Below, piece by piece: positions 6,113-40,263 of a stretch of DNA of 64,000 nt. Every line of letters begins with the position of its first letter. Position 1 is the first letter of the stretch. Source of the DNA: a virus; the IMG/VR virus record IMGVR_UViG_3300042301_003932; one strand, 5' to 3'. The notes beneath the pieces are model-generated. The model searched no databases and was not told the origin of the DNA. It was given only the letters and a program-made list of their open reading frames with translations. The position numbers were made by a program, and so were the translations under genes.

Positions 6113-6134
6113 ATTAATAAATATCATTAAGCAC

Positions 6135-6160
6135 AAAAAACCCCACAATAGTAGGGCTTT
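6135..6160 (-). terminator. Rho-independent terminator
   Basis: Minus strand GCCCTAC-TATT-GTGGGGT followed by a T run. Confidence 0.75.
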
Positions 6161-6185
6161 ATGTTATTTTAAAAATTTTAAATTA

Positions 6186-13893: not shown

Positions 13894-13954
13894 ATTTGTT
13901 TTTTTTAAGTTTGGTGTATTAGCTGTTACACATGGGTAACATTTACCTTCGTCT

Positions 13955-13986
13955 TAAATATAAGAGTAAACCTTACTCTTGTCAAA
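13955..13986 (-). promoter_or_regulatory. Host-type promoter for the DNA polymerase gene, with a palindromic spacer
   Basis: TTGACA-N17-TATATT, also readable as TTTG-N20-TATATTTA (Bacteroidota -33/-7 consensus, one mismatch). Palindrome AAGAGTAA-N3-TTACTCTT at 13962-13980. Confidence 0.7.
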
Positions 13987-14335
13987 TAATGTTGATATAT
14001 AAATTTTCTCTAATTGGTCCTATTAGTTCTCCGTTTGATAACTCAATTAAAAATTCTCCGATGAATCTACCTTTTTTTGAGGTGTCTTTTCCTCTCCACT
14101 TGTAGTAAATATAATATTCTCTTGGTGAGTCGGGATTTCTTCTTTCTTTTTCTGTAAGGTATGCCGGTTGCATAAATATTTTTTGAATCCCGTTATCCTC
14201 ACTCTTCATTGAGAATCGGATGTTCGCATTATCCAAAACCTCATAAAAGTTTTTCCAAGAGTCGGTTCTACCATCTCTTACGACATCCATTTTTAAAATG
14301 GGTAGATTACTATTTTGTTTTATAAAAAACTCCAT
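13982..14335 (-). CDS. BppU-N-like Ig-fold structural protein
   Basis: FFIKQNSNLPIL...IRFSM...YYKW..KDT...GRFIGEF pattern. Confidence 0.55.
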   Translation of the reverse strand: MEFFIKQNSNLPILKMDVVRDGRTDSWKNFYEVLDNANIRFSMKSEDNGIQKIFMQPAYLTEKERRNPDSPREYYIYYKWRGKDTSKKGRFIGEFLIELSNGELIGPIRENLYINII

Positions 14336-14349
14336 TTTAATTTTTATGG

Positions 14350-14631
14350 TTATTGTTTTTTAATAATTCTAGCAAATTTATTAGTACCTCTTATTGCTTG
14401 AATTTCTTGCAGTCTGATTTGAATATCTTCCTCAGTTAATTTTAAATTTCTTTTATCACTCAATCTGGTTTTTAAATCATTTTCTGAGTAATTGTTTAAA
14501 AGTTTACCTTTTTCTTCGTTATATTTAGACGGGGTCAAATGTGCTGCGTCTTTATTATTTTCTAACCAAGTATCTTCATCTGCTGATACTAAAAAGGTTT
14601 TATCTGATTTTTTTTGAATTTGTTTTATCAT
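14350..14631 (-). CDS. Hypothetical protein
   Basis: ATGA-coupled to the upstream gene. Confidence 0.6.
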   Translation of the reverse strand: MIKQIQKKSDKTFLVSADEDTWLENNKDAAHLTPSKYNEEKGKLLNNYSENDLKTRLSDKRNLKLTEEDIQIRLQEIQAIRGTNKFARIIKKQ

Positions 14632-15479
14632 GATGGTAATGGTAATGTATATAAAACGTTTATTTCTACTGGTGTGTAGTATAATTCTTCTGAAACATAA
14701 TCGCCAGGTCCGAAATCAAAAACAGTAAGAAGAACGGAGTCGTCAATTTCTGTGTCTGTTACAACTTGTGATTGAAAAAGTAAATTTGGGTTTATCACAC
14801 TTAACCCACCATTTTGATTTATATAAGTTTGGGTTGATTCTCTAGGAAATGAATTTTCAGAAGGTCCCTCATCGTTTTGTGCAAAATACACACCAGGAAT
14901 TGGTTCAGACCAACCTACATTAAACCCTAATGTGTTTTCTAATTCTGTAACAACAAAATCTCCAGATGAATTTAATTCAGTACCATTTGTCCATTCGGTA
15001 GGGATGAATCCTGTTGCAATAAAAATACAACCGTTTTGATTTATAGTACCGCTTGTAACATCAGCAATATTTGAAAAATCATCTCCGAGTACACTTGTTA
15101 TTTGATAAGTTGCGTTATCATCTCCACCAACCAGCGTAACTTCATCATCAACTAAATAATCTGAGCCTGAACTACTAACACTTACGTTAACCACTACTCC
15201 TGATGAAAATTCTACATCTAATTGTAAACCTGAACCGTTACCTCCTGTTGTGGTATAAGTAGTAACACCATCAGGATAATTTGTTCCATCATTAGTCATG
15301 TTACCATTATCAACATATCCCCCCGCATAATTAATTATCTCATACGATTCTCCAATAATTAATTTATTGTCAAAATCTAAGATTTCTGTACCACTCAACG
15401 GAGGTGTTTGTGTTAACAACGCCTTATAGGTTTTGAATGGGTATTGATTTGTTACGTATTTAATTGGTGCACTTGCCAT
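14628..15479 (-). CDS. Virion structural / fibre-associated protein
   Basis: YKALLTQT N terminus, a GGNGSG...GSDYLVDD module, and a module shared with the 17219-20995 product. Confidence 0.6.
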   Translation of the reverse strand: MASAPIKYVTNQYPFKTYKALLTQTPPLSGTEILDFDNKLIIGESYEIINYAGGYVDNGNMTNDGTNYPDGVTTYTTTGGNGSGLQLDVEFSSGVVVNVSVSSSGSDYLVDDEVTLVGGDDNATYQITSVLGDDFSNIADVTSGTINQNGCIFIATGFIPTEWTNGTELNSSGDFVVTELENTLGFNVGWSEPIPGVYFAQNDEGPSENSFPRESTQTYINQNGGLSVINPNLLFQSQVVTDTEIDDSVLLTVFDFGPGDYVSEELYYTPVEINVLYTLPLPS

Positions 15480-15525
15480 TTAATGTTTTTTTATAGTTTT
15501 TATTTTGTTTTATTTAATAAATATT

Positions 15526-16155
15526 TTATTGTTGAAAGTATTTCGCAATTCTTTTACTTAATCTAACTCTTGGATCATTTTCAGTTCTATTTAAAATCTC
15601 ATAAGGTAAAATAAAACCAAAACTCAAAAATACCCTTCTTGAATTAAATTCATTTGTCCAATGTTTATATAGTGATGCTTCAAATCCGTATAAATCGGTT
15701 TCTTCTATGTTGATTGATTCTTTATCAATAAAAAAATTATAGTCTTCTGATAATACACTTATGTTACATTTGTAATTAATATAACCATCAATTGATGCAT
15801 CATAATGGGGATTTATTTTTCCACCTTTATTCATATCAACCGATTGTAGGAAAATATTGTCTTTTGGAAAGTTAAACTCCTCAGATATTCTATCAATTAT
15901 ATTGTGAATAAATTCAGGTAAGATATCGTTTGAAACGTCAGATATTGATTGAAATTTTGTAATGTAATTTGTTAAAGGTGTTTTAGAAATATCAAACATA
16001 TAAGATTTACCATTAAGTGTTTTAGACAATTCTGTAAGGTGATGGTTACTATCATTACCATTGTGATTAACAGAATCGATCCAATTTACTATTTGGTTTA
16101 CTTCATCTTTTGTGATGAATTTTTTTATTGTCTTATATGTTTCCGTATTTTCCAA
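15526..16155 (-). CDS. 2OG-Fe(II) oxygenase
   Basis: GGKINPHYD (HxD), distal YKHW (His) and RVFLSF (2OG-binding R-x-x-x-S region). Confidence 0.8.
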   Translation of the reverse strand: MENTETYKTIKKFITKDEVNQIVNWIDSVNHNGNDSNHHLTELSKTLNGKSYMFDISKTPLTNYITKFQSISDVSNDILPEFIHNIIDRISEEFNFPKDNIFLQSVDMNKGGKINPHYDASIDGYINYKCNISVLSEDYNFFIDKESINIEETDLYGFEASLYKHWTNEFNSRRVFLSFGFILPYEILNRTENDPRVRLSKRIAKYFQQ

Positions 16156-16393
16156 TTTTTTTTAAGTTGTGTTTTTCTAAAAATTCTCTTGGGCTCATTG
16201 CCTCAATTATTGTTAATTCCGCAGAAGCCATAAGTTGTTTTGCTTTTTCTTCGGTAACTGCCATAACACATAATTTATGTGTTGCCGGTAATTCTCCTGT
16301 TGGTGATAAATCCATTTTTAATATATTATCATTTTTCATTTTTTCTCTTGCTTGTGAAACTTTACTTTCTTCACATAATATACATATTCTCAT
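16133..16393 (-). CDS. Hypothetical protein
   Basis: Overlap-coupled within the minus-strand operon. Confidence 0.6.
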   Translation of the reverse strand: MRICILCEESKVSQAREKMKNDNILKMDLSPTGELPATHKLCVMAVTEEKAKQLMASAELTIIEAMSPREFLEKHNLKKIGKYGNI

Positions 16394-17205
16394 TTTGTTT
16401 GATCTTGTGATTGTGGATTTATTCTATTTTGTATTAACAAGTTGTAGTTATCTTGTACCCCTTTTTTAAAGTCGGTAAAATTTTTGTTATTTAAAATTTC
16501 ATCTTTATTAGTATTAAAAGAAACTCTTTTTAAAACTTCTGTTGTTGTTGTTGCGCTAAAATTATTTGAGTCAACAACCATAATACCTAAAGTACCAATA
16601 CTATCACCGACTATTAAACTGGTCTCTTTACTTATCGTCACATTTTTAACATTGTTTTGATCTGAAATATAATAGGTAAAAGGTTCTAAGAAATCACCAG
16701 ACTTACTTAAAATATCTATATTATTTAAGTCGTATTTATTATTAATTAATATCTCTTGTTCAAAAGACACTGAGAATCCTCCTTGTGATTGGCATTCTAT
16801 ACAATCTTTAAATTCTGTAAGAGTAGATATTGTGGATAAATTTACGTCAGAGTTAGTGACTCCAGAAAATGTAAAACAACCCTCAATATCATCAATTGTT
16901 GCTGAATAAACACTATTAAGATTAGGTAAAGATGATTGAAGTGATTGTGGAGATATGTAATAATTGATATTATTTGAACAATTATTAAAAATTAATTTAA
17001 AATTAACACTTGATAAACAACTTAAACAACTCACAGTATTTTCTCCTGTTGTTTGCATAACCGAAAGATTAAGTGTTTCTGATTGTGCTTGAAAACAGCC
17101 AAACTCTGTCGGAAAAATGACTCCGGCTCTTAGTTGTCCTTTTTTATCTTCAGATACTCTAATATCTGAAGGGTCTATACAATTTACTGATATCCAATTT
17201 GCCAT
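16390..17205 (-). CDS. Cys-rich protein with two CxxC-ending repeats
   Basis: GCF...SCLSC and GCF...DCIEC. Same repeat type as the 55632-57440 product. Confidence 0.6.
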   Translation of the reverse strand: MANWISVNCIDPSDIRVSEDKKGQLRAGVIFPTEFGCFQAQSETLNLSVMQTTGENTVSCLSCLSSVNFKLIFNNCSNNINYYISPQSLQSSLPNLNSVYSATIDDIEGCFTFSGVTNSDVNLSTISTLTEFKDCIECQSQGGFSVSFEQEILINNKYDLNNIDILSKSGDFLEPFTYYISDQNNVKNVTISKETSLIVGDSIGTLGIMVVDSNNFSATTTTEVLKRVSFNTNKDEILNNKNFTDFKKGVQDNYNLLIQNRINPQSQDQTK

Positions 17206-17218
17206 AATTTCTTTTTTT

Positions 17219-20200
17219 TTAATCTGTTATATTTACAATATTTAATACTGATGATGAATCATAATACGATAATTTAGCACTTCCACCTTGTATGTTAAAT
17301 ATGTTTTTATCCATACTCGTATCATAAACATAAGTGGATGAACTAAAATCATTACTATTTATATTATCTGTGATATTATTTTTTTGAAAAGTTCCGTTAA
17401 TCCTATTACCATAAAAGGTATCTCTAATTACGTTATTTGTAAAATCATTACTGATTGAGTTACCTCCAACATTATTTGTTGTGTCATTTCCAAAGTAATT
17501 TCCAATTTTGTTATTTGTAAAGGTACCATCTATTACGTTTTCAGTTCCTGATCCACCATTACCAAAATAATCACCAATATCGTTATTTTCAAATGTATTA
17601 TTTATTGTATTAAACGCCATGTAATTACCGATCTTATTAGAAACAAAATCAGAACTAATTGTGTTACCCACACATACGTTTGATACATTGTTATCAACAA
17701 AGTTTGGACTTAAAAGGTTAAATATAAATTCATTACCTATTTTGTTATTGGTTGTATTTGTATCTGTTACATTAAAAAAGAAATTATCACCGATAACGTT
17801 TCCTGAAAAACCGGTATTAATTAAGTTACCACCATCAACACCCAAATAATTACCAAAATTGTTTCCAATAACATTTGATTTAAAGTCATCAAAAATTTGA
17901 TTTGTTAACCCTGGAGATCCGGTACCGTCATTTCCAAAATTATCAGCAATTGTGTTATTTTGAAAGTTTAATCCAATGGTGTTATTAATAAATAAGTTAC
18001 CGATATTATTACTGTAAAAATCATCATCTATCGTATTATCATAAAAATTATTTTTAATATTATTACTATAAAAATTTTGACCTATGATATTATTATAAAC
18101 GCTGTCACCAAAAGAATTATTTTCAAAAGTGTCACCAATAATATTTTGATAAAAACCACCCTTCCAATTATTTCTATAAACACCACCTAAAAAGTCGTTA
18201 CCAAAAGTGTAAACACCAATGTCATTGTTATAGGTGTCTCCAGAAAATTCATTTCCACCTACATAGGAATTAATATTATTTTCTTGAAAGTATCCACGAA
18301 TATAATTTCCTTTAAATTCATTAAAAATAGTATTATCCGCAAATTCACTACCGTTATTATTTTGTGTGTAGATTGAGTTCCATTCTGTTCCTTCAGGTGA
18401 AACATTTTCATCCCACGAGTTTTCCAAAACATCATTATAAATTGCTCCACCATTATTTCTTTTTATTTCAAGACGACCAGGAATAATAATATCAACCACA
18501 TTTTCATAATTTGTTTTTGTAAAATAAACTGTTGGTTCAGACGTTGGATAAACTTTTGTTCTTTCATATGAAAATCCTCCACCATTACCACCTTGCGTCC
18601 ATTGTGTAAATTTAACTCTATAATATTCATCATAAGATGTTAATTCAGTTAATTCTGAATTTGAGATCCATTCAGTAGGTGTAGTTCCTGTTGCTATAAA
18701 AATACATCCGTTTGTATTTATAACACCACTTATTACATATGCAACATTACTAAAATCGTCACTACCTTGATAATTTGTAATTTCATATGTTTCATCAATT
18801 ACTAAATCACCGCTAGTTATTGTTGTACCTGAATTACGTAAAAATCTCATTATAAGTTCCTTGCCCAAAATAACATTACCAATGTTATATCCTTCATTGC
18901 CGTATAATGAATTAAAAAATGTGTCGTAAGTTCTTCCCGTTAAATTTTCAATATTTGTATTATCCCAATTAAAATATTGAGTATCTCCTAACGTGTTTCT
19001 TTCAAAGGTATTACCAATTTGGTTGCTTTCAAAAAAATAAGAAATACCATTGTCACGAAAATAGTTACCAATTTGGTTATTTTGGAAATAATCACCAATT
19101 AATTCATTACTTTCAAAATCATTACCTATATGGTTACCATAAAAATTATACCCTATGTTTGGATTATTATAAAAATTGTTACCTATAACATTTTCATAAA
19201 AATTACCATTAAGTGTGTTACTTTCAAAATCATTACCAATTTGATTATTTGAAAAATTTTGTCTAATAGTGTTATTATTAAAATTATTTCCAATTTTATT
19301 TTCGTAAAATTCAAAATTACTTGTATTACCAGAGTCTCCGATTGTAATATTATTAAAGTTATTTAATATTTCATTACTATAAAAATTAGAATAAATAGTA
19401 TTAGTATTAAAATTATTACCAAGTGAATTATCATTAAAATCTCGGTATACCTTATTATTATAAAAATAAGAACCTACTTTGTTATCGTTAAAACTACCAT
19501 CAATTCTATTATTACTAAATTCTACAGTTATGTGATTATTTTGAAAACTGGTATTAATTAAATTTCCGTTGAAAAGGTCACCAATGTCATTATTAAAAAA
19601 CTCGTTTCCAGCAAATGTTAAAAAGTTTGCCTGAAAGTAGTTTCCAATTCTATTTTGATCAAAGTCTTGCCCATCGTTGTCCCCTAACATATTATATTGA
19701 AAATAATTACCAATTTGGTTATCTGCCATATCACAAATGATAATATTATTTCTAAAGTAATTACCAATAGTGTTTCTATCAAAATCGTTTGTGATTATGT
19801 TACGATAAAAATTATTACCAATAGATAATGCATTCATATCATCATCAAATGTATTATCATATGACTCATCACCTATAGTAATATTTAAATAAGACCCATC
19901 AAGAAATACATTATTAGATAACAAGAAGGGATTTTCCTGCCAATTATAAAGATTGGCGTAATTTCCAATTTTTACATTAAACACATCTGGAGCTTCAAAA
20001 GTTAAATATTCGGTGTAAGCGGTATTACTAATTATGTTTGTTTTATGAAAACTTCTATAATCATTAAATTGTATCCCTCTAGAATATGGTGTATTATAAT
20101 TTGATTGAATGGTATTACCAGTAACAGTCATTTCGGTTGCCCCACTAATTGTAAGGATTTCGTAGTATCTAAAACATCCTGTTGGGTTACTAAACGACCC

Positions 20201-20995
20201 TTCATAAACTCCCAATACATCACCAACACTAAAGTTATTTGAAAAGTCTGTATCTGATCCAGTAACAAAACCACTACCATCAATACTCAGAGTACCTGAA
20301 TAGTAGTTTTCTGAATAATAAAAATCATATCTTTTAAATAAAACGGATCTAAAGTCATAGTCAGTTCTATTTCCTCTTTCATCAATTCTTTCAGTAATTC
20401 TACCCTTTGCAGGATTACCTGTTCTTTCAGTTACGGTAAAAGATATATCGTAAGAAATCTCATCTAAAGGGTATTCTAATGAATATGCTTTAGGTGATAG
20501 AGAGTTAACACCCGTGGCTAATACAAGTATTGGTTCTGTTGCACCTGTTTTATAGTTGTTACCTACTATTGCATTACCATTTTGGTCAAAATCAGGTTGG
20601 TCATAACAAGTTTGAAAATCATTGATTAGGTAATACAATCCTGAATTTAATGTTTCACCTGTAAATAAATCATATAATTCACTATATGTTACAGACGTAT
20701 AAATTTCAGTTATAATTCCTGTTAAATTTGACCCATCACCAAACAATGTAGTAGCACTAAATGTATTGGCAGATAAACCATTTGTGAAATTTGTTGTGCC
20801 GGTTACTGTACCTCCTGTAAAAGATCCTCCACCAAAATCTTCAAGAGAACCATCTGGATTCTTTTTTTCAAATGACCCACTATTTAAATCAACCCCAACG
20901 TAATAAGTGTTAGTGGTTCCACTTAAATTATTGAAATCTTCTCCTGTAACGTAAATTGTGGTTTTACCATTATTTTGTTGTATTATTCTTCCCAT
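17219..20995 (-). CDS. Tail fibre / tailspike with Asn-rich beta-helix repeats (1258 aa)
   Basis: GDGSNLTG shaft motif, GLYYLINDFQT, many ~9-aa (IGNxFxxNx) repeats. Confidence 0.8.
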   Translation of the reverse strand: MGRIIQQNNGKTTIYVTGEDFNNLSGTTNTYYVGVDLNSGSFEKKNPDGSLEDFGGGSFTGGTVTGTTNFTNGLSANTFSATTLFGDGSNLTGIITEIYTSVTYSELYDLFTGETLNSGLYYLINDFQTCYDQPDFDQNGNAIVGNNYKTGATEPILVLATGVNSLSPKAYSLEYPLDEISYDISFTVTERTGNPAKGRITERIDERGNRTDYDFRSVLFKRYDFYYSENYYSGTLSIDGSGFVTGSDTDFSNNFSVGDVLGVYEGSFSNPTGCFRYYEILTISGATEMTVTGNTIQSNYNTPYSRGIQFNDYRSFHKTNIISNTAYTEYLTFEAPDVFNVKIGNYANLYNWQENPFLLSNNVFLDGSYLNITIGDESYDNTFDDDMNALSIGNNFYRNIITNDFDRNTIGNYFRNNIIICDMADNQIGNYFQYNMLGDNDGQDFDQNRIGNYFQANFLTFAGNEFFNNDIGDLFNGNLINTSFQNNHITVEFSNNRIDGSFNDNKVGSYFYNNKVYRDFNDNSLGNNFNTNTIYSNFYSNEILNNFNNITIGDSGNTSNFEFYENKIGNNFNNNTIRQNFSNNQIGNDFESNTLNGNFYENVIGNNFYNNPNIGYNFYGNHIGNDFESNELIGDYFQNNQIGNYFRDNGISYFFESNQIGNTFERNTLGDTQYFNWDNTNIENLTGRTYDTFFNSLYGNEGYNIGNVILGKELIMRFLRNSGTTITSGDLVIDETYEITNYQGSDDFSNVAYVISGVINTNGCIFIATGTTPTEWISNSELTELTSYDEYYRVKFTQWTQGGNGGGFSYERTKVYPTSEPTVYFTKTNYENVVDIIIPGRLEIKRNNGGAIYNDVLENSWDENVSPEGTEWNSIYTQNNNGSEFADNTIFNEFKGNYIRGYFQENNINSYVGGNEFSGDTYNNDIGVYTFGNDFLGGVYRNNWKGGFYQNIIGDTFENNSFGDSVYNNIIGQNFYSNNIKNNFYDNTIDDDFYSNNIGNLFINNTIGLNFQNNTIADNFGNDGTGSPGLTNQIFDDFKSNVIGNNFGNYLGVDGGNLINTGFSGNVIGDNFFFNVTDTNTTNNKIGNEFIFNLLSPNFVDNNVSNVCVGNTISSDFVSNKIGNYMAFNTINNTFENNDIGDYFGNGGSGTENVIDGTFTNNKIGNYFGNDTTNNVGGNSISNDFTNNVIRDTFYGNRINGTFQKNNITDNINSNDFSSSTYVYDTSMDKNIFNIQGGSAKLSYYDSSSVLNIVNITD

Positions 20996-21051: not shown

Positions 21052-21870
21052 TTAGAAGTAATTAAATTTTTCAAAGAACCATAAATAATTTTGCTTTATT
21101 ATTTCACAATTTTGTTCACCTAAAATTTCTAAATAATCTTTACGAGGTTCTTTAAGTTTTGATTCAATTTTGTGATCACCAAATATACCATGTATAACAT
21201 CATTTTCTTCTGTTAATTGTTCTATATTTTCAAAGTCATGTTGGTAGTAAGGTAGATCCAAATACTTGTATATTTTTTTAATTTCCATTTCTGGATTTTT
21301 ACAAAAATCTTCATATCTTAAAAATAAAATGTGTTGATCTAAATTTTGTTGTATCAAATCTTTTAACCATTCTAATGAAGGTCCGACAGGTGGAGAAACA
21401 GAAAAATGGACCATTCTTGAATCTGTTGTCATATTTTTTAATTCTGCACCATTAACAATTAACGGATCTATATGTGGATTTTTTCTATAGTTTTTTTCCA
21501 TTGACGCAAATATTGCCCTCAAGTCTCTAACCATAATTATTACTTTTGGGTTTTCTTCAAAAAATTCTAAAAAAGAAAAGTGACCTGACCATGCCCTACT
21601 TTTATCTAAAACATATGGTCTATCTGTGATTTCGTTGAAAAATCCCCATAACCCACCTTTACAAAAACCTTTAAATCCTTTTTTCATTAATTCCGGATCT
21701 TGTGCTCTAAATGCGTCTCCTGTTGAGTAAAGTGTTCTTGCTTGTAATAAAAACTCAACAACACCTGATGTTGGTGTTGAATATATTTCAGGATTTTGCA
21801 TCATAATATTTTGCAATAAAGTTGAACCTGCTCTTGGTAGTGATGCGTTAAAAAATATGTTTTTTATCAT
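21052..21870 (-). CDS. PAPS-dependent sulfotransferase
   Basis: 5'-PSB motif SLPRAGSTLL, then DKSR, MVRD....FAS and LRYEDF. Confidence 0.9.
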   Translation of the reverse strand: MIKNIFFNASLPRAGSTLLQNIMMQNPEIYSTPTSGVVEFLLQARTLYSTGDAFRAQDPELMKKGFKGFCKGGLWGFFNEITDRPYVLDKSRAWSGHFSFLEFFEENPKVIIMVRDLRAIFASMEKNYRKNPHIDPLIVNGAELKNMTTDSRMVHFSVSPPVGPSLEWLKDLIQQNLDQHILFLRYEDFCKNPEMEIKKIYKYLDLPYYQHDFENIEQLTEENDVIHGIFGDHKIESKLKEPRKDYLEILGEQNCEIIKQNYLWFFEKFNYF

Positions 21871-22751
21871 TTTGTTAAAGAATTAATAATTTTATCAAAA
21901 TCAAATAATACATCACCTTCAAATATTGGACATTCGTGTAATGACCCGTGAAAGTTATAATCAAATAAATATGAATCAGGTAACGGTATAGTTTTAGAAA
22001 TATTTGCAACTATATTGTCGTGTAAATCATAACCAAATATTTTAGGATTTGTTGCAACCCACAATACTGTTGATGGTAATTTAAGTGCAGCTGCTCCGTG
22101 TTGTAAACTTGAATCAATTAACAATCTTTTTTCAGACATCGTTAAAAGATAAAGTAACTCCATATTTGACATTGGTTGACTTTGTACTTCAACATCATCA
22201 ATAAAGTTAAGTTCATTTCTACATATTTGGATTATGTGGTAGTCTTTTTTAAACTGTTCCACAATTGATTTAGAAAGTAACTGTGGCATGTCTCTTGTCC
22301 AAGAATAAGGAAATGGTTGATCTAATAATGGCCCACCATTTGTTTGTATTAAAAATATCGGTTTTTCTCTTGACCATTTTTTTTGAAAAACCATTTGTTC
22401 TCTTAAATTGAATTTTACTTCAGGCATTTCACCTAACCAATTTAAGTTATATAAATTACACCAATTTTGAATTAAAGGTAATTTACCGTGAATATGTTCA
22501 GTTGTAAAATATGGTTCGTGTTTGAATACTAAAGAATCTTTATCTTTAACAAAATCATCATAGAAGTATGATGTTGTATTATTTCTATAAACTCTCCAAA
22601 CACAAGGTAGGTTTATAAATATTTCGGGATAGGAACAAACAATTATTAATTTCCTATCTTTATGGTTATTTTTAATTGTTTTTGCAACTGCGGTTGCTGC
22701 GATGTGTTTTCCTAAACCACCTTCTATATGAAATATTGCATATTTTTCCAT
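21867..22751 (-). CDS. GT9-like (heptosyltransferase-fold) glycosyltransferase
   Basis: N-terminal GGLGK and IDSSLQHGAAALKLPSTVLW, matching the GT9 D-S-x-x-x-H-x-AAA motif. Confidence 0.75.
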   Translation of the reverse strand: MEKYAIFHIEGGLGKHIAATAVAKTIKNNHKDRKLIIVCSYPEIFINLPCVWRVYRNNTTSYFYDDFVKDKDSLVFKHEPYFTTEHIHGKLPLIQNWCNLYNLNWLGEMPEVKFNLREQMVFQKKWSREKPIFLIQTNGGPLLDQPFPYSWTRDMPQLLSKSIVEQFKKDYHIIQICRNELNFIDDVEVQSQPMSNMELLYLLTMSEKRLLIDSSLQHGAAALKLPSTVLWVATNPKIFGYDLHDNIVANISKTIPLPDSYLFDYNFHGSLHECPIFEGDVLFDFDKIINSLTK

Positions 22752-22801
22752 GACTTTTTAATCAAATATTAATAAAGTCAAAAGAAAAATAAATAAAACT
22801 A

Positions 22802-23041
22802 TTAGTTCAAATAATTTTTACCTGAAATAATTGTGTTATCTATTTCAGATCTTTGTTCTGTTGTTAGTGCGTTTGAAAAAAACTCTTTACCTAACATAAT
22901 TTCTAAATGTTCAACATTTCTTTTTACCAAATCTTTATTTTCATCATCGGTAGGTTTAGTGATTGTTTCGTTAATTAAATTAACTGAGTCAAAAGCGGCA
23001 CTAATTGATTGTTGTGTGTTTACTATAAACTCTTCTTCCAT
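22802..23041 (-). CDS. Small helical protein, possible fibre assembly chaperone
   Basis: DSVNLI...RNVEHLEIML. Directly follows the fibre gene. Confidence 0.5.
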   Translation of the reverse strand: MEEEFIVNTQQSISAAFDSVNLINETITKPTDDENKDLVKRNVEHLEIMLGKEFFSNALTTEQRSEIDNTIISGKNYLN

Positions 23042-23062
23042 TTTTTATATTTTTTTTAATTA

Positions 23063-25339
23063 TTATACCAATAATATTTTATGGTTAACACCATTTAATA
23101 CTACAGATAATGTTCTTGTTGAAGTGCAAGATTCTATATTTATTGGACCAACTTGATAAGTTGAGGAACCTAAAACGAATTGATTGTTTGCGGTTGCGGT
23201 TGCACAAGCACCTAAAATAACTGAATTTGAAAAATTTCCAGTGTTTGTTCGAGACCCTAATGCCGTGTTAGTGTTACCTGTTATGTTTCCAATTAAAGAA
23301 AGAAAACCAACACCAACATTATTAGAACCTATTGTGTTATAAGGTGAAGAAGCACCACCAAGTGATACGTTATAATTTCCTATTGTGTTAACATTTAAAG
23401 AACAAGAACCTAAAGCAACATTTGTACATCCACTAGTGTTACAAAACAACGATTGTCTACCAATGGCCACATTATCACCACCTACCGTATTACATACCAT
23501 AGAACCGAAACCTAGTGAAGTATTATAACTACCGGTGGTGTTTGAACGCATAGATTCAAAGCCTACGGATGTATTAGAATTAGCGGTAGTATTTTGTCTT
23601 AAAGTATCGTTCCCTATTGCGATATTTCGAGCGCCTTCAGTATTGTTTATTAAAGTACAAGTACCTAAACCAACGTTTTGAAAACCTGTTGTATTATAAC
23701 GTAAAGAATTACAACCAATACTAATATTACCACCACCACTACTATTATTACGTAAGGCATTATAACCTATAGCAATATTTACTGAACCATCGGTATTACA
23801 AAATAGTGATTGTCTACCAATACCGATATTATTAAATCCCGTAGTGTTACTACGCAAAGAATTACAACCTAAAGCAATGTTAGAACATCCTGTTGTATTA
23901 CAACGTAAAGAATACCTACCTAATGCAATATTATTATCCCCCGTAGTATTTGAACATAAACTAATAAGCCCCAAAGCAATGTTATGAGATCCGGTTGTGT
24001 TATTACGTAAAGAATACCTACCCATACTAATATTACAACTTCCGTTTGTATTAAATAACATACTACAATCACCAAAAGAAATATTTCTTGTACCTGTAGA
24101 GTTTGTCTGAAGAGACTTTAATCCAATCGCAATATTAAAACTTCCATTTGTGTTACATCGCAACGTACTATAACCAAGTCCAATATTTGAGTCTCCACCC
24201 ATACCGTTATTACATAAAGAATATCTACCTAATGCAATATTATTGCTCGCAACAGTATTTGAAAATAGACTTTGGTTACCAATTGCTATGTTGTTAAACC
24301 CCATAGTGTTTGACCTCAAACTATATCTTCCTAATGCCACATTATACCCTCCCGTTGTATTACAACGTAACCCATACTGACCTAATGCAATATTATGACA
24401 ACCTGTGGTGTTATTATACAAAGAAAACCGACCTAAACTAATATTATTACTACCTGTAGTGTTATTATATAGGGAACTATTTCCAATCGCAATATTTTCT
24501 GTGCCTGAAATATTTTTACTTAATGCGCCAGCATTTATCGCCGTATTACTACTACCATTAATGTTATTTGCTAAAGTACGATAACCAATTGCTACGTTTA
24601 CACCTCCTATAGTATTATTACGTAAAGAACAAAATCCTAACCCTACGTTAAAACATCCTGTTGTGTTAGATAAGAGCGAATACCTACCCAACGATACGTT
24701 GTCGCGACCAGTTGTGTTACTGTAAAGTGAACAACAACCCAACGATATGTTGTTATTTCCTGTTGTATTTGCTCGTAGTGAATTTTGACCCAAAGATATG
24801 TTGTTACTTCCTGTTGTGTTTGAACATAAACTGAATCGACCCAAAGCAATATTACAACCTCCTGTTGTGTTGGTGTTTAACACCGAGCAACCTAACGCAA
24901 GATTATAACGACCCGTAGTATTAGCGTTTAAAACCGAATTACCTAATGCAATATTATTGGATCCGGCAGTATTACTATATAATACCCCACTACCAATACC
25001 AATATTACGACATCCACTTGTATTAGAAAATAAAGAAAAACAACCAATCGCAACATTTAACGTCCCCCCCGTATTACTACGTAAGGATTGATTGCCTAAT
25101 GCAATATTATGGCATCCTGTTGTATTTGAATTTAACGCAAACCTACCCAAAGCAACATTATCCGTTCCTGTTGTTGTATTATTTAATGAAAATCCACTCT
25201 GTAATATATTATTACTTGCATTTGCGGTGAATCCAGTAAATGATCCCCCACCACTAACTCCCGTTAAATTAGAACCATCACCATAGAGTGTTGTTCCACT
25301 TATTGTTGTTGCACTTATTATGTCTGTATTAAATCCCAT
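23063..25339 (-). CDS. Tail fibre with YadA-head-like 17-aa repeats, Cys-rich
   Basis: About 38 repeats of NTTGxxNIALGxxSLxx, N-terminal YGDGSNLTG, about 29 Cys. Confidence 0.85.
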   Translation of the reverse strand: MGFNTDIISATTISGTTLYGDGSNLTGVSGGGSFTGFTANASNNILQSGFSLNNTTTGTDNVALGRFALNSNTTGCHNIALGNQSLRSNTGGTLNVAIGCFSLFSNTSGCRNIGIGSGVLYSNTAGSNNIALGNSVLNANTTGRYNLALGCSVLNTNTTGGCNIALGRFSLCSNTTGSNNISLGQNSLRANTTGNNNISLGCCSLYSNTTGRDNVSLGRYSLLSNTTGCFNVGLGFCSLRNNTIGGVNVAIGYRTLANNINGSSNTAINAGALSKNISGTENIAIGNSSLYNNTTGSNNISLGRFSLYNNTTGCHNIALGQYGLRCNTTGGYNVALGRYSLRSNTMGFNNIAIGNQSLFSNTVASNNIALGRYSLCNNGMGGDSNIGLGYSTLRCNTNGSFNIAIGLKSLQTNSTGTRNISFGDCSMLFNTNGSCNISMGRYSLRNNTTGSHNIALGLISLCSNTTGDNNIALGRYSLRCNTTGCSNIALGCNSLRSNTTGFNNIGIGRQSLFCNTDGSVNIAIGYNALRNNSSGGGNISIGCNSLRYNTTGFQNVGLGTCTLINNTEGARNIAIGNDTLRQNTTANSNTSVGFESMRSNTTGSYNTSLGFGSMVCNTVGGDNVAIGRQSLFCNTSGCTNVALGSCSLNVNTIGNYNVSLGGASSPYNTIGSNNVGVGFLSLIGNITGNTNTALGSRTNTGNFSNSVILGACATATANNQFVLGSSTYQVGPINIESCTSTRTLSVVLNGVNHKILLV

Positions 25340-25345: not shown

Positions 25346-26356
25346 TTAATTAAATGTTCCTGAAATTATCCAATTACCGATCACCCTTTTTTCAACTATG
25401 AAGTTTGCTCCTGATATTGACATTCTCCATGAACCATTGGTTGATGAATCACCAAAATAAAGGTATCCTGTTGAATCTATATATGTGTTTGATGCTTGTA
25501 AAGTTGTTGCTGATAGTGTATTTGCCGTTAATCCATTTGTAAAAGAAGTAGAGCCGGTAACAGTACCCCCACTTAATGGAAGATATTTACCTGTAACGTT
25601 ATCAGGTAAATTTTGATATGTTGTTGCCGAAAGTATTCCATTTATAGTTAACCCACTAAATCCGTCAATATATGTATTTAAACTATTATTTGTATTATCA
25701 GTTAAAGTAATTGTATTAGTTGAACTATCGTATGTTGATGCGGTTAAAAACGTATTTGAATCTCCAGTTAAAGAACTAATATTAACAGTATATGCCGATT
25801 GAGATACATTTGTGTTAAAATAAATAATTCCGTCATTATATGTTGCTCCTGTTGTGAAAACATCTGTTGTTCCTGTATAAAATCCATTAACGGTGACATC
25901 GGCCCCGTTACTTGTTGAAAGTGTTAGTGTTCCTCCAGAGTATGTCCCTGAAGTAATTAAATCACCAAATGTTGGTAAATCAACCAAAACCGTTTGTCCT
26001 GAACCACTAATTGTTCCTCCACTTAAAGTATATACATCACCATTTAAAACAATTAATTGAGAATTTTCATTTAATAATAAAGTGCCAAAAACATACAAAT
26101 CACCATAAATAAAACTTTGTGAATAAGAATCAATTTCTACTGTTGTTCCTGAAGGTATGTACCATCTATTATCAACGTTGATATCTACACTTGATATGGT
26201 ACCTCCAGTTGGATTTATTAAACTTAGTGTGCTTGAAGAAAATGTTAACCCTGAAACCCCAATAGATTGTAGATAATAAAGATTATTATCCATATCTAAA
26301 TTGGTTAATTTTGACCCCTTAGCGTCAGGCCCATATTGTCTTGTAACTAAACTCAT
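25346..26356 (-). CDS. Tail fibre-related protein
   Basis: KGSKLTNLDMDNN N terminus, YLPLSGGTVTG motif, Thr/Ser/Gly-rich. Confidence 0.7.
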   Translation of the reverse strand: MSLVTRQYGPDAKGSKLTNLDMDNNLYYLQSIGVSGLTFSSSTLSLINPTGGTISSVDINVDNRWYIPSGTTVEIDSYSQSFIYGDLYVFGTLLLNENSQLIVLNGDVYTLSGGTISGSGQTVLVDLPTFGDLITSGTYSGGTLTLSTSNGADVTVNGFYTGTTDVFTTGATYNDGIIYFNTNVSQSAYTVNISSLTGDSNTFLTASTYDSSTNTITLTDNTNNSLNTYIDGFSGLTINGILSATTYQNLPDNVTGKYLPLSGGTVTGSTSFTNGLTANTLSATTLQASNTYIDSTGYLYFGDSSTNGSWRMSISGANFIVEKRVIGNWIISGTFN

Positions 26357-26379: not shown

Positions 26380-28308
26380 TTATTCAAAATAACCACATTC
26401 GTCATAATAACCATCAATGTATTCATTGGTACAAAGACAATTAGGGCACCAAAAATTAAGTAAATTAAATTTATCTTTTAATACTCTAAAGTTATGTTGT
26501 ATTTGTGGTGAACTTAATGGTTCTACATACATTCTAAATTGAGAAATCCCCCCCATAAAAGTTCCACCAAAATTTTGTTCTAATAATATATTTGTTGAAA
26601 TTCCCGAAAAGGTGGTTGCACTTAATATGTTATTTGGGAATAGTTCGGGATCTTGTATGTAAGGGCCGTTTGGTAATGAGCAACCTGAAAAAATTAAGTG
26701 ATCATGTAATCCTTGAGTCCCCCCACCAAACGAAATATTAAAAGGAACACCAACTTGTTTTTCTTTTTCTGTATTTAATTCTCTTGGTATAATCTCCTCA
26801 AAGTCTTCAATAACTAAAAACAAATAACCATTAACATATAGTTTTAATGTTCCTAATCTATAATTTAATTCATCAAACCATTTTTTATCAAATCTAACAA
26901 TGTGTATTTTTCTTTCAGGTGTTGATCCTGGATGTGTTTCAGGTGGTGAAATTAAATTAACTGACTTACCATCTATTGATGATTGTGTTGTAACAACTCT
27001 TAAATCGTTTAACCCACCTAAATTTAATAAATCACACTCCTCAATGGTTGTGTACCGTTCAAAAACGGCACTTATCATAACCCACTTTTCTTCGGTATTA
27101 TCACCACATTCTAACCCACATAAATCATATATCGGTTGTGATATTACTTCGGTTAATGTATACCCTGTTTGGAATGTTACACCTGTTGTTTCGCAACTTC
27201 CTGTGGTTACACAGTCTCCTGTAATTTTTAAATATTTTACAGCAATACTTGGATTTTCAGGGCAACCATCAAATCTTAAAGATATCGCACTTGACAAGAC
27301 ATCAAATTTTGGATCGGTTTCTGGTAGCGGTACGATTTCTGTACTTGCACACCCACAATTACATCCAAGATTGTGTACCGTAGTAAATCCGTTGTTAGGG
27401 TAAACGTGAATACAATTTGCGTTTGTAACTCCCGTATTTGAACAAGCACAAGACTCAATACATGTTAACCCACTTGTGATTCTAGTGTAACCTGAGTCAG
27501 ATGATGGAGATCCGTTGGCTTCGTGATAATATTTATTCTCCGCTCGTGTACCAAAATAAAAGAACGTACCAGCATTTGATGGGTATATATCATTTAAATA
27601 CTGTTCGGTGTTAGGGTTTAAAGAATACTCTTCAAATGTTCTTGGTTTTAACATCATCTCAACAGACCAACCCTTATTTACCCTTTCAGGAAAAACCTCA
27701 TAATCGTACCCATTTAATTTATAAAATCCTTGATAAAACCCACCGTATAACTCTTGATAGTAACCAACGGTACTCGCACTTTTTGATACAATATTATATA
27801 TACTATCTTTTGGTCTTCCTGAAAATTTTACGTTTGGTAACTCAACCACGCTTCTTACAGGGTGCATTTTAAACCTACTATCTCTATAATGAGGGTGAAA
27901 CTTGTACGTATCATCTATACCTTTAATATAATATAAAGTTTCTCCTGACATTTTTGTAAATAACCCGTTATCGGTAGCAACAAGACCAACATCACAAATA
28001 CCTGTATATGCGGTATAACAACTGTAGTCTAAATTTTTTGGGTTATAAAAGTTTTTTGAAACAAATGTGTTTCCAAAAATATAGTCACCGTATTTTAACG
28101 TCGGTTGTATGGTTGTGCCTGTATTATTTAAATCAATATAAATTGGTAATCGGTTTCCATCATTAATACCAATTACATCAGTAGAAAAAACAACTTCTTC
28201 ATCATAACTTCCTTCATCTGACGCTAAAGTTAAGTCAAAATACTGACCATAATTCAGTTTTGTGGTGTATTTTGGGTAATAATAAGAATTAATGTTTTGA
28301 CTTGGCAT
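26380..28308 (-). CDS. LamG/concanavalin-like structural protein with Cys-rich insertions
   Basis: WSVEMMLKP, WVMISAVF, LKLYVNG, FMGGISQFRMY...LSSPQIQHNF. Confidence 0.65.
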   Translation of the reverse strand: MPSQNINSYYYPKYTTKLNYGQYFDLTLASDEGSYDEEVVFSTDVIGINDGNRLPIYIDLNNTGTTIQPTLKYGDYIFGNTFVSKNFYNPKNLDYSCYTAYTGICDVGLVATDNGLFTKMSGETLYYIKGIDDTYKFHPHYRDSRFKMHPVRSVVELPNVKFSGRPKDSIYNIVSKSASTVGYYQELYGGFYQGFYKLNGYDYEVFPERVNKGWSVEMMLKPRTFEEYSLNPNTEQYLNDIYPSNAGTFFYFGTRAENKYYHEANGSPSSDSGYTRITSGLTCIESCACSNTGVTNANCIHVYPNNGFTTVHNLGCNCGCASTEIVPLPETDPKFDVLSSAISLRFDGCPENPSIAVKYLKITGDCVTTGSCETTGVTFQTGYTLTEVISQPIYDLCGLECGDNTEEKWVMISAVFERYTTIEECDLLNLGGLNDLRVVTTQSSIDGKSVNLISPPETHPGSTPERKIHIVRFDKKWFDELNYRLGTLKLYVNGYLFLVIEDFEEIIPRELNTEKEKQVGVPFNISFGGGTQGLHDHLIFSGCSLPNGPYIQDPELFPNNILSATTFSGISTNILLEQNFGGTFMGGISQFRMYVEPLSSPQIQHNFRVLKDKFNLLNFWCPNCLCTNEYIDGYYDECGYFE

Positions 28309-32916: not shown

Positions 32917-33512
32917 GTGAAAAGTTAAACAAAGTAATGGACAATATAAAAAAATTAAAGTCCGTACAAAATAAAGTTTCTGATTTTGGAATGCCAAACT
33001 CACAATTTGATATTAATGATATCGTTTCTAATATTGATGATTTAGATTCTATTTTGATGGATAAGTCTGCGGGTAAAATAAATTTAGAATATACAAATGA
33101 TTCAGATAATAAAGAACCCGAATACGCCTACGAATCAGACTCAGGGTTTGATTTAAGATCAACAGAAGAGTTGTGGGTACAGGGTCACGATAGAAAATTA
33201 ATACCAACAGGATTAAGATTTGACATTCCTGATGGTTATGAAATACAAGTAAGAAGTAAAAGTGGATTAGCGTTAAATCAAGGATTAATGGTTTTAAATT
33301 CACCAGGGACTGTTGATAGTGGGTATCAGGGTGAAATTAAAGTTATTATTTTTAATACCACAAAAGAAAGAATAAAAATTGAAAAGGGTCAAAAGGTGGC
33401 ACAAGCAGTACTTTGTCCTGTGGTTAATGGTAAATGGGTTAATTTAGTTAAAGTGGAAGAGATTGGTGAAAAAGATAGGAATAATCAAGGTTTTGGCTCA
33501 ACAGGTTTATGA
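32913..33512 (+). CDS. dut: Trimeric dUTPase with N-terminal extension
   Basis: SGFDL, RSKSGLA, GTVDSGYQGEI, AQ, RNNQGFGSTG. Confidence 0.95.
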   Translation: MSEKLNKVMDNIKKLKSVQNKVSDFGMPNSQFDINDIVSNIDDLDSILMDKSAGKINLEYTNDSDNKEPEYAYESDSGFDLRSTEELWVQGHDRKLIPTGLRFDIPDGYEIQVRSKSGLALNQGLMVLNSPGTVDSGYQGEIKVIIFNTTKERIKIEKGQKVAQAVLCPVVNGKWVNLVKVEEIGEKDRNNQGFGSTGL

Positions 33513-38318: not shown

Positions 38319-38329
38319 CATTCAAAAAA

Positions 38330-38947: not shown

Positions 38948-38959
38948 TTTTAAAAAAAA

Positions 38960-39538: not shown

Positions 39539-39553
39539 TATATACTATTTATT

Positions 39554-40252: not shown

Positions 40253-40263
40253 AAAAATTAAAT

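Follow-up and report, generated by a model that had tools for sequence, protein, structure and literature searches.

Gene content of the locus and its repeat fibre

The stretch analysed here, hereafter the window, is one strand of 64,000 nt from an uncultured marine T4-like phage (record IMGVR_UViG_3300042301_003932). The presence of a Gp23 capsid protein identifies the phage as T4-like and the enzyme genes lie inside its structural operon. An earlier note on this DNA described a gene for a repeat fibre followed by genes for a 79-aa protein, a GT9-like enzyme and an ATGA-coupled sulfotransferase, and then a second fibre gene. We confirm this order (Table 1), with the first four genes being intact ORFs at the positions which that note gave. 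The enzyme pair is located between a fibre of 17-aa repeats and one of 9-aa repeats. Contigs from four other samples display the identical five-gene order, and loci L175 and L176 share the succession of 17-aa-repeat fibre, enzymes and second repeat fibre.

Table 1 Features of the fibre locus and their coordinates in the window.
Feature	Coordinates	Strand	Basis or comment
Two genes of the fibre block lying upstream, for proteins of 336 aa and 642 aa	25346..28308	-	
Tail-fibre/virion protein P0001, 758 aa	23063..25339	-	β-solenoid shaft of 17-residue repeats, predicted; PHROG, tblastn, Atlas model
39 tandem 17-aa repeats of P0001, residues 43-705	23225..25213	-	Lag-17 identity 0.43, register, per-position counts
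79-aa helical protein P0002	22802..23041	-	Companion of 17-aa-repeat fibres; 321 relatives
GT9-fold glycosyltransferase-like enzyme P0003 (GT9L), 294 aa	21867..22751	-	AF2, Foldseek, donor motif
ATGA stop/start overlap of GT9L and sulfotransferase genes	21867..21870	-	Read directly from the sequence
PAPS-type, TPST-like sulfotransferase P0004, 272 aa	21052..21870	-	Pfam, TPST1 profile match, AF2, Foldseek
Second fibre P0005, 1258 aa, 9-aa-period repeats	17219..20995	-	N-terminal G-D-G-S-x-L-T-G motif common to P0001

No Pfam or PHROG family was found for the two upstream proteins; in relatives, the gene for the 642-aa protein (cluster c13) is conserved as the opening gene of the fibre block and lies upstream of fibres at 14 loci. 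A run of genes at ~33.5-49.1 kb of the window encodes soluble GT2, GT4, GT11 and GT25 enzymes, FkbM methyltransferases and GDP-fucose synthesis. PAPS-supply genes are not encoded in the window, nor are a TibC-like initiating enzyme, an APS kinase or a nucleotidyltransferase. A Bacteroidota host, which the earlier note considered, is hinted at only weakly, by the similarity of gmd.

By its family matches P0001 is a phage tail fibre or virion structural protein. It matches PHROGs 23837, 6002 and 4636 (virion structural/tail spike) at 1e-93 to 1e-107 and, by tblastn, annotated tail fibres of the pelagiphages HTVC111P/112P, of roseophages and of P-SSM2, and its Atlas monomer model (pLDDT 0.90) resembles viral Peptidase_S74/PTL_trimer fibres. 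The repeat fibre of the earlier note holds; its YadA likeness is a lead only. The Pfam search with P0001 gave no match, including to the YadA-head/Hep_Hag repeat (PF05658), and the sole support is YadA_head in 23% of the members of one Atlas look-alike cluster.

Self-identity of P0001 is 0.43 at lag 17 compared with 0.04-0.13 at lags other than multiples of 17. The repeats are in register apart from one 1-residue insertion near residue 382 and follow the consensus x-N-[IV]-[AS]-[LI]-G-x-x-S-L-x-x-N-T-T-G-x, where N-T-T-G occupies positions 13-16 and the variable positions carry Ser, Arg, Cys and Tyr. Asn is found at position 13 in 38 of 39 repeats, N-T in 31 and a strict N-x-[ST] in 24; the earlier note had counted ~38 repeats, mostly beginning with N-x-T/S. 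Ten further sequons lie at repeat positions 2-4, and the total for P0001 is 51 (6.7 per 100 aa vs 0.5-2.2 in neighbouring proteins). The sequon reading of the motif is nevertheless lost, as N-T-T is equally or better conserved in 24 fibres without a nearby enzyme (T14 0.79 and T15 0.73, vs 0.71 and 0.58 for the others). We dropped it as evidence of glycosylation; this conservation marks N-T-T as a structural feature of the repeat. P0001 has 21 Tyr and only 14 Asp and Glu residues, and none of its repeat positions has a conserved Tyr (top frequency 0.18). The variable positions of sulfotransferase-linked fibres are richer in Arg, Cys and position-12 Tyr.

P0002 is a genuine ORF of a conserved family found among viral contigs, with no Pfam or PHROG match. 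In most loci centred on this gene a 17-aa-repeat fibre lies one or two genes upstream, often without enzyme genes. As it accompanies the fibre with or without enzymes, P0002 was dropped from the enzyme cassette and is proposed to be a fibre accessory outside the chemistry.

The GT9-fold enzyme and the TPST-like sulfotransferase

The AF2 model of P0003 (pLDDT 95.5, Rossmann strand 1 beginning at residue 3) points to a GT-B fold nearest WaaC/WaaF. The top ten Foldseek matches are all GT9 structures, among them 3TOV, WaaF (1PSW), WaaC and TibC, with E-values of 1e-10 to 8e-07 and TM-scores of 0.55-0.67; the anticipated comparison with TibC and WaaC thus came out in favour of this fold. The GT9L family profile matches WaaF at the D-S-x-x-x-H-x-A-A-A-L donor motif, and D213-S214...H218-x-A-A-A-L of P0003 aligns with WaaF in the form D-[ST]-G-x-x-H-x-A-A-A-L, with D213, S214 and H218 at least 90% conserved in the family. 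Its designation as GT9-like is supported by fold and donor site but not by Pfam, as P0003 has no Pfam match, including PF01075 (GT9), at E<0.1. NCBIfam RfaC reaches only 0.064, and P0241, a relative with 30% identity, is narrowly over the PF01075 cut-off (22.9 vs 22 bits).

When P0003 is aligned with the TibC-like family by hhalign, its G-G-L-G-K15 pairs with C-L-G-D40. P0003 thus lacks the catalytic Asp that GT9 enzymes have in their N-terminal G-D loop (WaaC Asp13, TibC Asp110) and carries in its place Lys15, which is at least 90% conserved in the GT9L family. Because of this replacement, the chemistry or the acceptor of GT9L may differ from those of WaaC and TibC. P0003 further shows no CxxC cluster, no TIGR04414 match and no N-terminal β-barrel; lacking the iron finger, the TIGR04414 match and the catalytic Asp, it was rejected as a TibC/Aah member. 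Relatives of GT9L occur as fusions with FkbM methyltransferase or GT25 domains, which marks a glycan-building role.

Family matches and motifs assign P0004 to the PAPS-dependent sulfotransferase superfamily (Sulfotransfer_3, PF13469, 1.3e-14; Sulfotransfer_1, PF00685, 5e-14). The 5'-PSB (P-R-x-G-S-T) and 3'-PB (R-D-x-R...S) motifs are invariant or near-invariant, with P12, R13, S16, T17, R115 and S123 invariant in the family and D116 and R118 at least 90% conserved. Its nearest relatives in sequence and predicted fold are tyrosylprotein sulfotransferases (TPST). The family profile matches TPST1 at 7e-11 and TPST2 at 5.5e-07, followed by the next enzyme class at 1.3e-06 and heparan-sulfate 3-OST at 2.9e-04. 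With the AF2 model (pLDDT 93.3) the top ten Foldseek matches are all TPST1/2 (2.5e-08 to 2.2e-07), the margin over the CurM and 3-OST sulfotransferases being only ~tenfold. The HMM alignment pairs G-E-E-T-R of TPST1 with T-P-T-S-G of the P0004 family, where the nearby near-invariant E39 could substitute for the catalytic Glu (Glu99 in TPST2). TPST substrates are Tyr residues flanked by acidic residues. The best NCBIfam match of P0004, well below the family cut-off, is NoeE (5.9e-06), a Nod-factor sugar sulfotransferase. Of the earlier idea of a sulfated sugar, the identity of the sulfotransferase stands while the sugar as sole target does not, as the enzyme is TPST-like and often lies beside a fibre without GT9L.

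Linkage to repeat fibres and sister cassettes

The pairing of a GT9-type transferase with a sulfotransferase recurs in hundreds of related phage loci. Genomic linkage to fibre genes had been set beforehand as a point on which the fibre-tailoring idea could fall, and the cassette withstood it. A periodic-repeat fibre was found ≤3 kb away in 31 of 35 distinct GT9L-centred and 17 of 17 sulfotransferase-centred loci, counts that include many close relatives and are thus not independent events. The linked fibres are mostly upstream of the enzymes on the same strand, and repeat fibres make up 0.22-0.32 of the ORFs within 4 kb vs 0.02-0.05 beyond 8 kb.

Co-occurrence with 17-aa repeats in particular applies to the P0004-type sulfotransferase but not to the transferase, as most partner fibres of the GT9L family have 15-aa repeats. 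All 22 loci with a sulfotransferase at least 64% identical to P0004 contain an upstream 17-aa-repeat fibre, which adjoins it directly or with only the 79-aa gene, in some cases along with one further small ORF, intervening. A sulfotransferase lies ≤3 genes away in 31 of 35 GT9L-centred loci; for 16 of the 36 17-aa-repeat fibres linked to a sulfotransferase, the next 7 genes downstream include no GT9L. GT9L also occurs beside such fibres without a sulfotransferase, e.g. in the 32-kb pelagiphages HTVC111P/112P, where its gene adjoins the fibre gene. In P-SSM2 a GT9L homologue is found among tail-fibre genes, beside annotated ADP-heptose pathway enzyme genes. In some relatives the tail-sheath gene is immediately preceded by GT9L, either alone or together with the sulfotransferase, and the available flank contains no repeat fibre.

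Sister cassettes run in the order fibre, GT8, TibC/Aah-like enzyme, GT9L, sulfotransferase, APS kinase, HxGH nucleotidyltransferase and DUF2061. Their TibC-like protein (c4) matches the PDB entry of TibC at 1.3e-18 and, below the equivalog cut-off, TIGR04414 at 2e-36; all four Cys of the iron finger and the catalytic Asp of L-G-D are conserved in it, and one relative additionally carries the TibC N-terminal domain. TibC and Aah are protein O-heptosyltransferases of β-helical repeat adhesins (PMC4358343). The likeness to AAH/TibC noted earlier therefore belongs to the sister cassettes and not to P0003. By gene content, the window cassette is a reduced marine version without PAPS-supply or TibC-like genes.

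A putative fibre-tailoring pathway and known systems

We propose, with a probability of about 0.4, that the cassette tailors the phage's own fibre by addition of a GT9L sugar and subsequent sulfation of that glycan. Late in infection the fibre operon would yield the β-solenoid fibre of 17-aa repeats and two soluble enzymes. GT9L would move a sugar from a nucleotide sugar onto the fibre, or onto a glycan begun there by other phage glycosyltransferases; the GT2/GT4/GT11/GT25, FkbM and GDP-fucose genes of the window could begin or extend this glycan. The donor is probably ADP-heptose because of the donor-site motif and the P-SSM2 context. The translationally coupled sulfotransferase would then sulfate the glycan with host-made PAPS, giving a fibre shaft that bears anionic sulfated sugars. 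Gene order, folds, motifs and linkage are observed here, whereas acceptor, sugar, sequence of reactions and biological effect are inferred. Fibre linkage, the TibC-like enzymes of the sister cassettes, ATGA coupling, GT9L fusions and the NoeE match argue for fibre tailoring. Against it we count Lys15, the lack of a TibC-like initiator, APS kinase and nucleotidyltransferase in the window and, for the sulfated-sugar version, the protein-tyrosine rather than sugar sulfotransferases among the best matches and the 16 of 36 fibres without GT9L.

The last two points are consistent with a somewhat unlikely alternative, in which the sulfotransferase would act TPST/RaxST-like on fibre side chains (Tyr or Ser/Thr) and GT9L on the fibre independently. 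The TPST1 profile and Foldseek matches, the retained PAPS motifs, the constant neighbourhood of the P0004 subfamily and 17-aa-repeat fibres, the pelagiphage fibres with GT9L but no sulfotransferase, and the Arg, Cys and position-12 Tyr of sulfotransferase-linked fibres are all in line with direct sulfation. However, Pro/Thr of the P0004 family stand opposite the catalytic Glu of TPST in the alignment, P0001 offers few acidic residues and no conserved Tyr position, the Foldseek margin is narrow, and the ATGA coupling with GT9L suggests one pathway.

It is unlikely that the enzymes instead modify the host envelope (LPS core, capsule or another surface glycan) and mask the receptor of the neighbouring fibre. 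Such masking would provide superinfection exclusion or keep progeny off debris, with enzyme and fibre co-inherited as a matched pair. In temperate P22-like phages host-surface-modifying enzymes can also neighbour receptor-binding genes, which counts against fibre tailoring. GT9L resembles WaaF/WaaC and 3TOV no less than it does TibC, GT8 and GT25, which usually accompany it, are the LPS-core families, and a matched receptor/masking pair would also account for enzyme subfamilies tracking fibre types. Against this, the sister cassettes use an enzyme of the protein-acting TibC/Aah type (PMC4358343), the sulfotransferase is TPST-like, the genes lie within the structural operon of a T4-like phage, the enzymes track the shaft repeat type, and no Pfam family typical of a flippase, polymerase or ABC exporter was found among the ORFs scanned.

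Similarly unlikely is a role of the pair as one arm of a large phage glycan pathway with its product elsewhere (capsid, sheath insertions, other virion proteins or free glycan), where closeness to the fibre would reflect a shared late operon only. The glycosyltransferase run of the window, the relatives with GT9L upstream of the tail-sheath gene and glycosylated capsid and tail-tube subunits of mycobacteriophages (described in PMC12619734, citing Freeman et al. 2023) would fit; the strong enrichment of repeat fibres near the enzymes and the 22 of 22 loci of the P0004 type argue against it. The fold of HMW1C is GT41. HMW1C/NGT-style N-glycosylation of the repeat N-x-S/T sequons is highly improbable despite their number and a GT9L without the Asp base expected of an O-glycosyltransferase of this fold, as N-T-T is equally conserved without enzymes, 15 of 39 repeats are N-T-x without Ser or Thr in third place and GT9L has a GT9 fold.

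Overall, it is probable that the phage chemically modifies the fibre with which it binds its host. That abundant marine phages sulfate their receptor-binding fibre, by a TPST-like enzyme acting on protein or on sugar from a GT9-fold enzyme with Lys for Asp, is a tentative possibility. If true, a bacterial virus would for the first time have been described with protein sulfation or a sulfated glycoprotein, and a polyanionic, sulfated-glycan-like fibre surface could mimic algal/marine sulfated polysaccharides or shield the fibre.

Bacterial RaxST is of the same kind as TPST1/TPST2. These enzymes (PDB 5WRI, 3AP1) are the best profile and fold matches of P0004, with PAPS-binding motifs kept, but their catalytic Glu has no aligned counterpart, acid-flanked Tyr appears to be lacking in the candidate substrate, and P0004 is cytoplasmic and phage-encoded. 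In fold, P0003 best matches WaaC/WaaF (GT9; PDB 2H1H, 6DFE, 1PSW) and the GT9 enzyme 3TOV of Veillonella (E 1e-10 to 3e-07). P0003 and WaaC/WaaF have the D-S/T-G-x-x-H-x-A-A-A-L donor-site motif in common; P0003 differs in having no PF01075 match, Lys for the G-D Asp and a fibre-gene rather than lipid A-core context. According to two reports (PMC12619734, PMC12801897, citing Freeman et al. 2023), mycobacteriophage-encoded glycosyltransferases likewise decorate their own structural proteins, at the C-termini of capsid and tail-tube subunits; we came across no mention there of sulfation, of a GT9/TibC-type enzyme or of a repeat-fibre link. TibC/TibA and Aah/AIDA-I (bacterial autotransporter heptosyltransferases, BAHT; PDB 4RAP/4RB4; PMC4358343) are similar in that a soluble GT9-fold enzyme is encoded beside a β-solenoid repeat adhesin and could act on it in the cytoplasm. 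P0003, at only 294 aa, differs from BAHT by the missing N-terminal β-barrel and CxxC...C...C iron finger and by Lys for the catalytic Asp, and the window encodes a phage virion fibre instead of a secreted bacterial adhesin, with a sulfotransferase added.

Gene block and repeat fibres

The window comes from an uncultured marine T4-like myophage with a GC content of about 30% and genes for the Gp23 major capsid protein, tail sheath, family-B DNA polymerase, helicase and PhoH. The DNA polymerase shares only about 23-26% identity with its counterparts in cultured phages (Salinibacter and Nostoc phages), which means that no cultured phage is close and that the host cannot be called from relatives. 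The cassette genes are part of one tightly packed minus-strand block, the order of which is conserved, with an identical P0003, on contigs from four other samples. In a metagenome copy of the cassette (L243), two ORFs of 427 and 320 aa take the place of the single 758-aa fibre ORF, which could reflect a frameshift, an altered repeat number or misassembly. A promoter and terminator scan performed no better than shuffles.

Coordinates of the fibre-enzyme block, other genes of the window and features of homologous loci
Locus	Feature	Coordinates	Strand	Length
Window	642-aa protein	28308..26380	-	642 aa
Window	336-aa protein	26356..25346	-	336 aa
Window	Fibre P0001	25339..23063	-	758 aa
Window	Repeats of P0001	23225-25213		
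Window	P0002	23041..22802	-	79 aa
Window	P0003 (GT9L)	22751..21867	-	294 aa
Window	P0004 (sulfotransferase)	21870..21052	-	272 aa
Window	Second fibre P0005	20995..17219	-	1258 aa
Window	Run of soluble glycan genes (PhoH mid-run)	33509-49121	+	
Window	GT2-like/GT4 two-domain protein, GT4, GT2, GT25, Glyco_trans_1_2, GT11 (fucosyltransferase family)	within 33509-49121	+	
Window	Several FkbM methyltransferases, gmd, fcl-like epimerase	within 33509-49121	+	
Window	gmd	43700-44680	+	
Window	859-aa ORF	58612-61191		859 aa
L243	Fibre, called as two ORFs, in a metagenome copy of the cassette	2708-4961		
L002 / L003	Acyltransferase (HTVC111P/112P)	225-632 / 1-383		
L004	GT9L homologue PSSM2_307 and the genes after it (P-SSM2)	13989-18362		
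L114	APS kinase-nucleotidyltransferase fusion	10803-11849		
L183	GT4 + TibC-like GT9 + FkbM protein	12364-15153		
L133	GT4 + TibC-like GT9 protein	4243-6510		

The 758-aa fibre P0001 shows a lag-17 identity of 0.43 versus about 0.04-0.13 at other lags and contains 39 in-register 17-aa repeats (residues 43-705) with the consensus x-N-[IV]-[AS]-[LI]-G-x-x-S-L-x-x-N-T-T-G-x. A strict N-x-[ST] occupies positions 13-15 in 24 of the 39 repeats and Ser occupies position 9 in 27. Of the 29 Cys of the protein, 27 fall on variable positions of the repeat (1, 7, 8, 11, 12 and 17). P0001 matches virion and tail-spike families in PHROG (1e-93 to 1e-107) and, by tblastn, annotated tail fibres of pelagiphages, roseophages and P-SSM2. 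Searches against Pfam gave no match and phmmer against PDB sequences nothing useful. The confident monomer model in the ESM Atlas resembles Peptidase_S74/PTL_trimer fibres, with YadA_head present in only a minority look-alike cluster. The earlier note had described a YadA-like fibre; the repeat fibre is solid, while the blank Pfam search and the minority cluster leave the YadA likeness as a lead only. The second fibre, P0005, is built on a 9-residue repeat, roughly N-x-I-G-N-x-F-x-x, in which Asn, Phe, Gly and Ile are frequent. Both fibres carry an N-terminal G-D-G-S-x-L-T-G motif, probably a shared attachment module.

For the Bacteroidota host considered in the earlier note there is a weak hint, and it comes from gmd. 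Marine Bacteroidota MAGs make up most of the best genome matches of this gene (59-73% identity), among them Saprospiraceae (71-73%), Cryomorphaceae (68%) and Altibacter (60%), a pattern that mis-binned phage contigs could also explain. One Pyrinomonadaceae MAG matched at 67% and all remaining hits were at or below 57%. The 859-aa ORF matched no family in an NCBIfam search and thus adds nothing to the argument for this host.

Linkage of the enzymes to fibre genes

We fetched 80 loci centred on relatives of GT9L (P0003, the GT9-fold transferase), 71 on sulfotransferase relatives and 80 on those of the 79-aa protein P0002, and annotated them with custom HMMs and a periodicity test. The GT9L search was seeded with an alignment of closer relatives; a single-protein query returned only 6 loci. 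For distinct loci flanked on each side by 6 kb or more, a periodic-repeat fibre lay within 3 kb in 31/35 GT9L-centred, 17/17 sulfotransferase-centred and 15/19 79-aa-centred loci, counts that exceed the number of independent events as many loci are close relatives. In most cases the linked fibre lies upstream, on the same strand, and repeat fibres make up 0.22-0.32 of the ORFs close to the gene but 0.02-0.05 of those more than 8 kb away. The enzyme pair is therefore tied to fibre genes, and the lack of genomic linkage that would have refuted the earlier note is not what the loci show.

The kind of fibre varies with the enzyme. In 22/22 loci with a sulfotransferase that shares 64% identity or more with P0004, a 17-aa-repeat fibre lies immediately upstream, a few of these loci having the 79-aa gene, sometimes plus one small ORF, in between. 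More distant sulfotransferases (46-52% identity) usually stand after GT9L, and the fibres ahead of them carry a related 15-aa repeat (S-T-V-S-G-G-x-x-N-T-x-S-G-x-x). GT9L is absent from the seven genes downstream of 16/36 sulfotransferase-linked fibres and also occurs without a sulfotransferase, for example in pelagiphages; since each enzyme is found beside fibres without the other, the two are not obligate partners. Loci L096-L099 and L101-L103 are among those with a fibre and a sulfotransferase but no GT9L, and of cultured phages S-SKS1, S-SRM01 and S-SCSM1 have genes annotated as sulfotransferases. In the small pelagiphages HTVC111P/112P, fibre, GT9L and 79-aa homologue are consecutive. Just upstream of a tail protein and repeat fibre, these phages also encode an annotated RTX-toxin-activating lysine acyltransferase (HlyC/CyaC type), by its annotation a second kind of repeat-protein-tailoring enzyme borrowed by phage.

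The 79-aa protein, which had been counted as part of the fibre-tailoring cassette, instead tracks the 17-aa-repeat fibre. In the majority of loci it comes after such a fibre, frequently where enzyme genes are absent altogether, and behind at least three kinds of C-terminal module (L216, L220, L224-L235). We thus rejected roles as an enzyme subunit and as a chaperone for one kind of C-terminus, and from these contexts regard it as a companion of the fibre. Complex prediction with whole P0001 scored 0.00, which is uninformative either way. One C-terminal module among the 17-aa-repeat fibres looks like the S74 intramolecular-chaperone type.

An atypical GT9-fold transferase and its fuller relatives

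P0003 matched no Pfam family, and phmmer against PDB sequences returned nothing useful. The ten best PDB fold matches of its AlphaFold model (81 diverse homologues, pLDDT 95.5) were all GT9, among them Veillonella 3TOV, WaaF, WaaC and TibC, and the family profile aligned with WaaF at the donor-site motif D-S-x-x-x-H-x-A-A-A-L. In a profile-profile alignment with a phage TibC-like family, the nearly invariant Lys15 (G-G-x-G-K) falls on the GT9 catalytic Asp (L-G-D), which in TibC is Asp110 (PMC4358343). P0003 also has neither the iron-finger cysteines nor the N-terminal barrel of TibC. These features place the predicted GT9 fold outside TibC/Aah, as an atypical GT9. The earlier label of a GT9-like enzyme thus holds by fold and donor motif, while TibC/Aah-type membership falls.

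The GT9L family comprises 4040 proteins in public data (E<=1e-5) and 473 confirmed places in a viral contig collection, ranging over pelagiphages, cyanophages and large uncultured marine and freshwater phages. Some relatives carry an FkbM methyltransferase or GT25 domain as a fusion. Heptose genes accompany GT9L in P-SSM2 and P-SSM5. In the Prochlorococcus phage P-SSM2, the homologue PSSM2_307 lies amid tail-fibre genes and is followed by an annotated Nol-like carbamoyltransferase, heptose-1-phosphate adenylyltransferase, carbohydrate kinase and phosphoheptose isomerase, a putative phage-borne ADP-heptose supply beside the family. Fusions and gene context together point to a role in glycan building, perhaps involving heptose.

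Fuller sister cassettes commonly have the order fibre(s), GT8, 302-aa protein, GT9L, sulfotransferase, APS kinase, HxGH nucleotidyltransferase and DUF2061. The 302-aa protein matches TibC in the PDB (1.3e-18) and TIGR04414 (2e-36) and retains the L-G-D Asp and the full set of four iron-finger Cys, features that mark it as a genuine TibC/Aah relative. One of its relatives has the TibC N-terminal domain, and further ones form fusions with GT4 and FkbM domains. Large proteins in L183 and L133 that join a GT4 to a TibC-like GT9 domain, in L183 with an FkbM methyltransferase too, are convergent to the sulfation cassette. APS kinase and the small HxGH (CTP_transf_like) nucleotidyltransferase are fused in L114 and elsewhere separate adjacent genes; this fusion suggests that the nucleotidyltransferase works with APS kinase in PAPS supply, and a heptose-1-phosphate adenylyltransferase role is also compatible. 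By tblastn, no APS kinase, nucleotidyltransferase or TibC-like gene was found within the 64-kb window of the roughly 157-kb genome.

Sulfotransferase and probable target of the enzymes

P0004 matches Pfam Sulfotransfer_3 and Sulfotransfer_1, and PAPS-binding motifs are conserved in its family. The best PDB matches of the family profile are TPST1 (7e-11) and TPST2 (5.5e-07), followed by polyketide, glycopeptide and heparan-sulfate sulfotransferases. Similarly, the ten best Foldseek matches of the AlphaFold model (pLDDT 93.3) are all TPSTs, with CurM and 3-OST within about one order of magnitude. In the profile alignment, the TPST catalytic Glu has no aligned counterpart in the P0004 family. The best NCBIfam match is a weak one to NoeE, a sugar sulfotransferase. 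The closest matches are thus TPSTs, and the acceptor may be a protein or a sugar.

The target of the enzymes is most likely the phage's own fibre. We tentatively favor a sulfated glycan on it (probability roughly 0.4), based on the ATGA coupling of P0003 and P0004, the adjacency of a sulfotransferase to GT9L in 31/35 GT9L-centred loci, domain fusions of a glycan-building type and the abundance of other glycosyltransferases in this phage. Direct sulfation of the fibre protein, for which the TPST matches would speak and the unaligned Glu would not, is the foremost alternative, albeit an unlikely one. Less probable again is masking of a host envelope glycan, and lower still we rank a different phage glycan as the target. 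The window encodes a co-oriented run of soluble glycan genes on the strand opposite to the cassette, in which no scanned ORF matched flippase-, polymerase- or exporter-type Pfam families. N-glycosylation of the repeat sequons, suggested by the N-x-T/S repeats, is very improbable, as N-T-T is as conserved in 24 non-redundant 17-aa-repeat fibres without enzymes nearby as in 36 with a sulfotransferase (T14 0.79 vs 0.71, T15 0.73 vs 0.58); the motif is structural, and the sequon argument of the earlier note is rejected.

The same comparison revealed more Arg (0.58 vs 0.21 per repeat) and about 7-fold more Cys (0.29 vs 0.04) in sulfotransferase-linked than in enzyme-less fibres, and Tyr at repeat position 12 is commoner in the former. 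Together with the frequent Ser at repeat position 9 of P0001, these are candidate surface adaptations, confounded by relatedness.

Fibres determine which hosts a phage infects. If they are chemically tailored after translation, receptor specificity, stability and virion stickiness would not be set by sequence alone, and given the spread of the GT9L family any effect would reach very abundant ocean viruses. The cassette also poses two questions of enzymology: what activity a GT9 fold has with Lys replacing the Asp base, and what a TPST-like enzyme uses as substrate in the bacterial cytoplasm. In the literature searched we found no paper on phage TibC-like enzymes or phage fibre sulfation and no description of a sulfated protein, or of a sulfated glycan on a protein, in a virus of bacteria. 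The closest precedents are TibC/TibA together with Aah/AIDA-I (PMC4358343), and the glycosylation of mycobacteriophage virions, as cited in PMC12619734.
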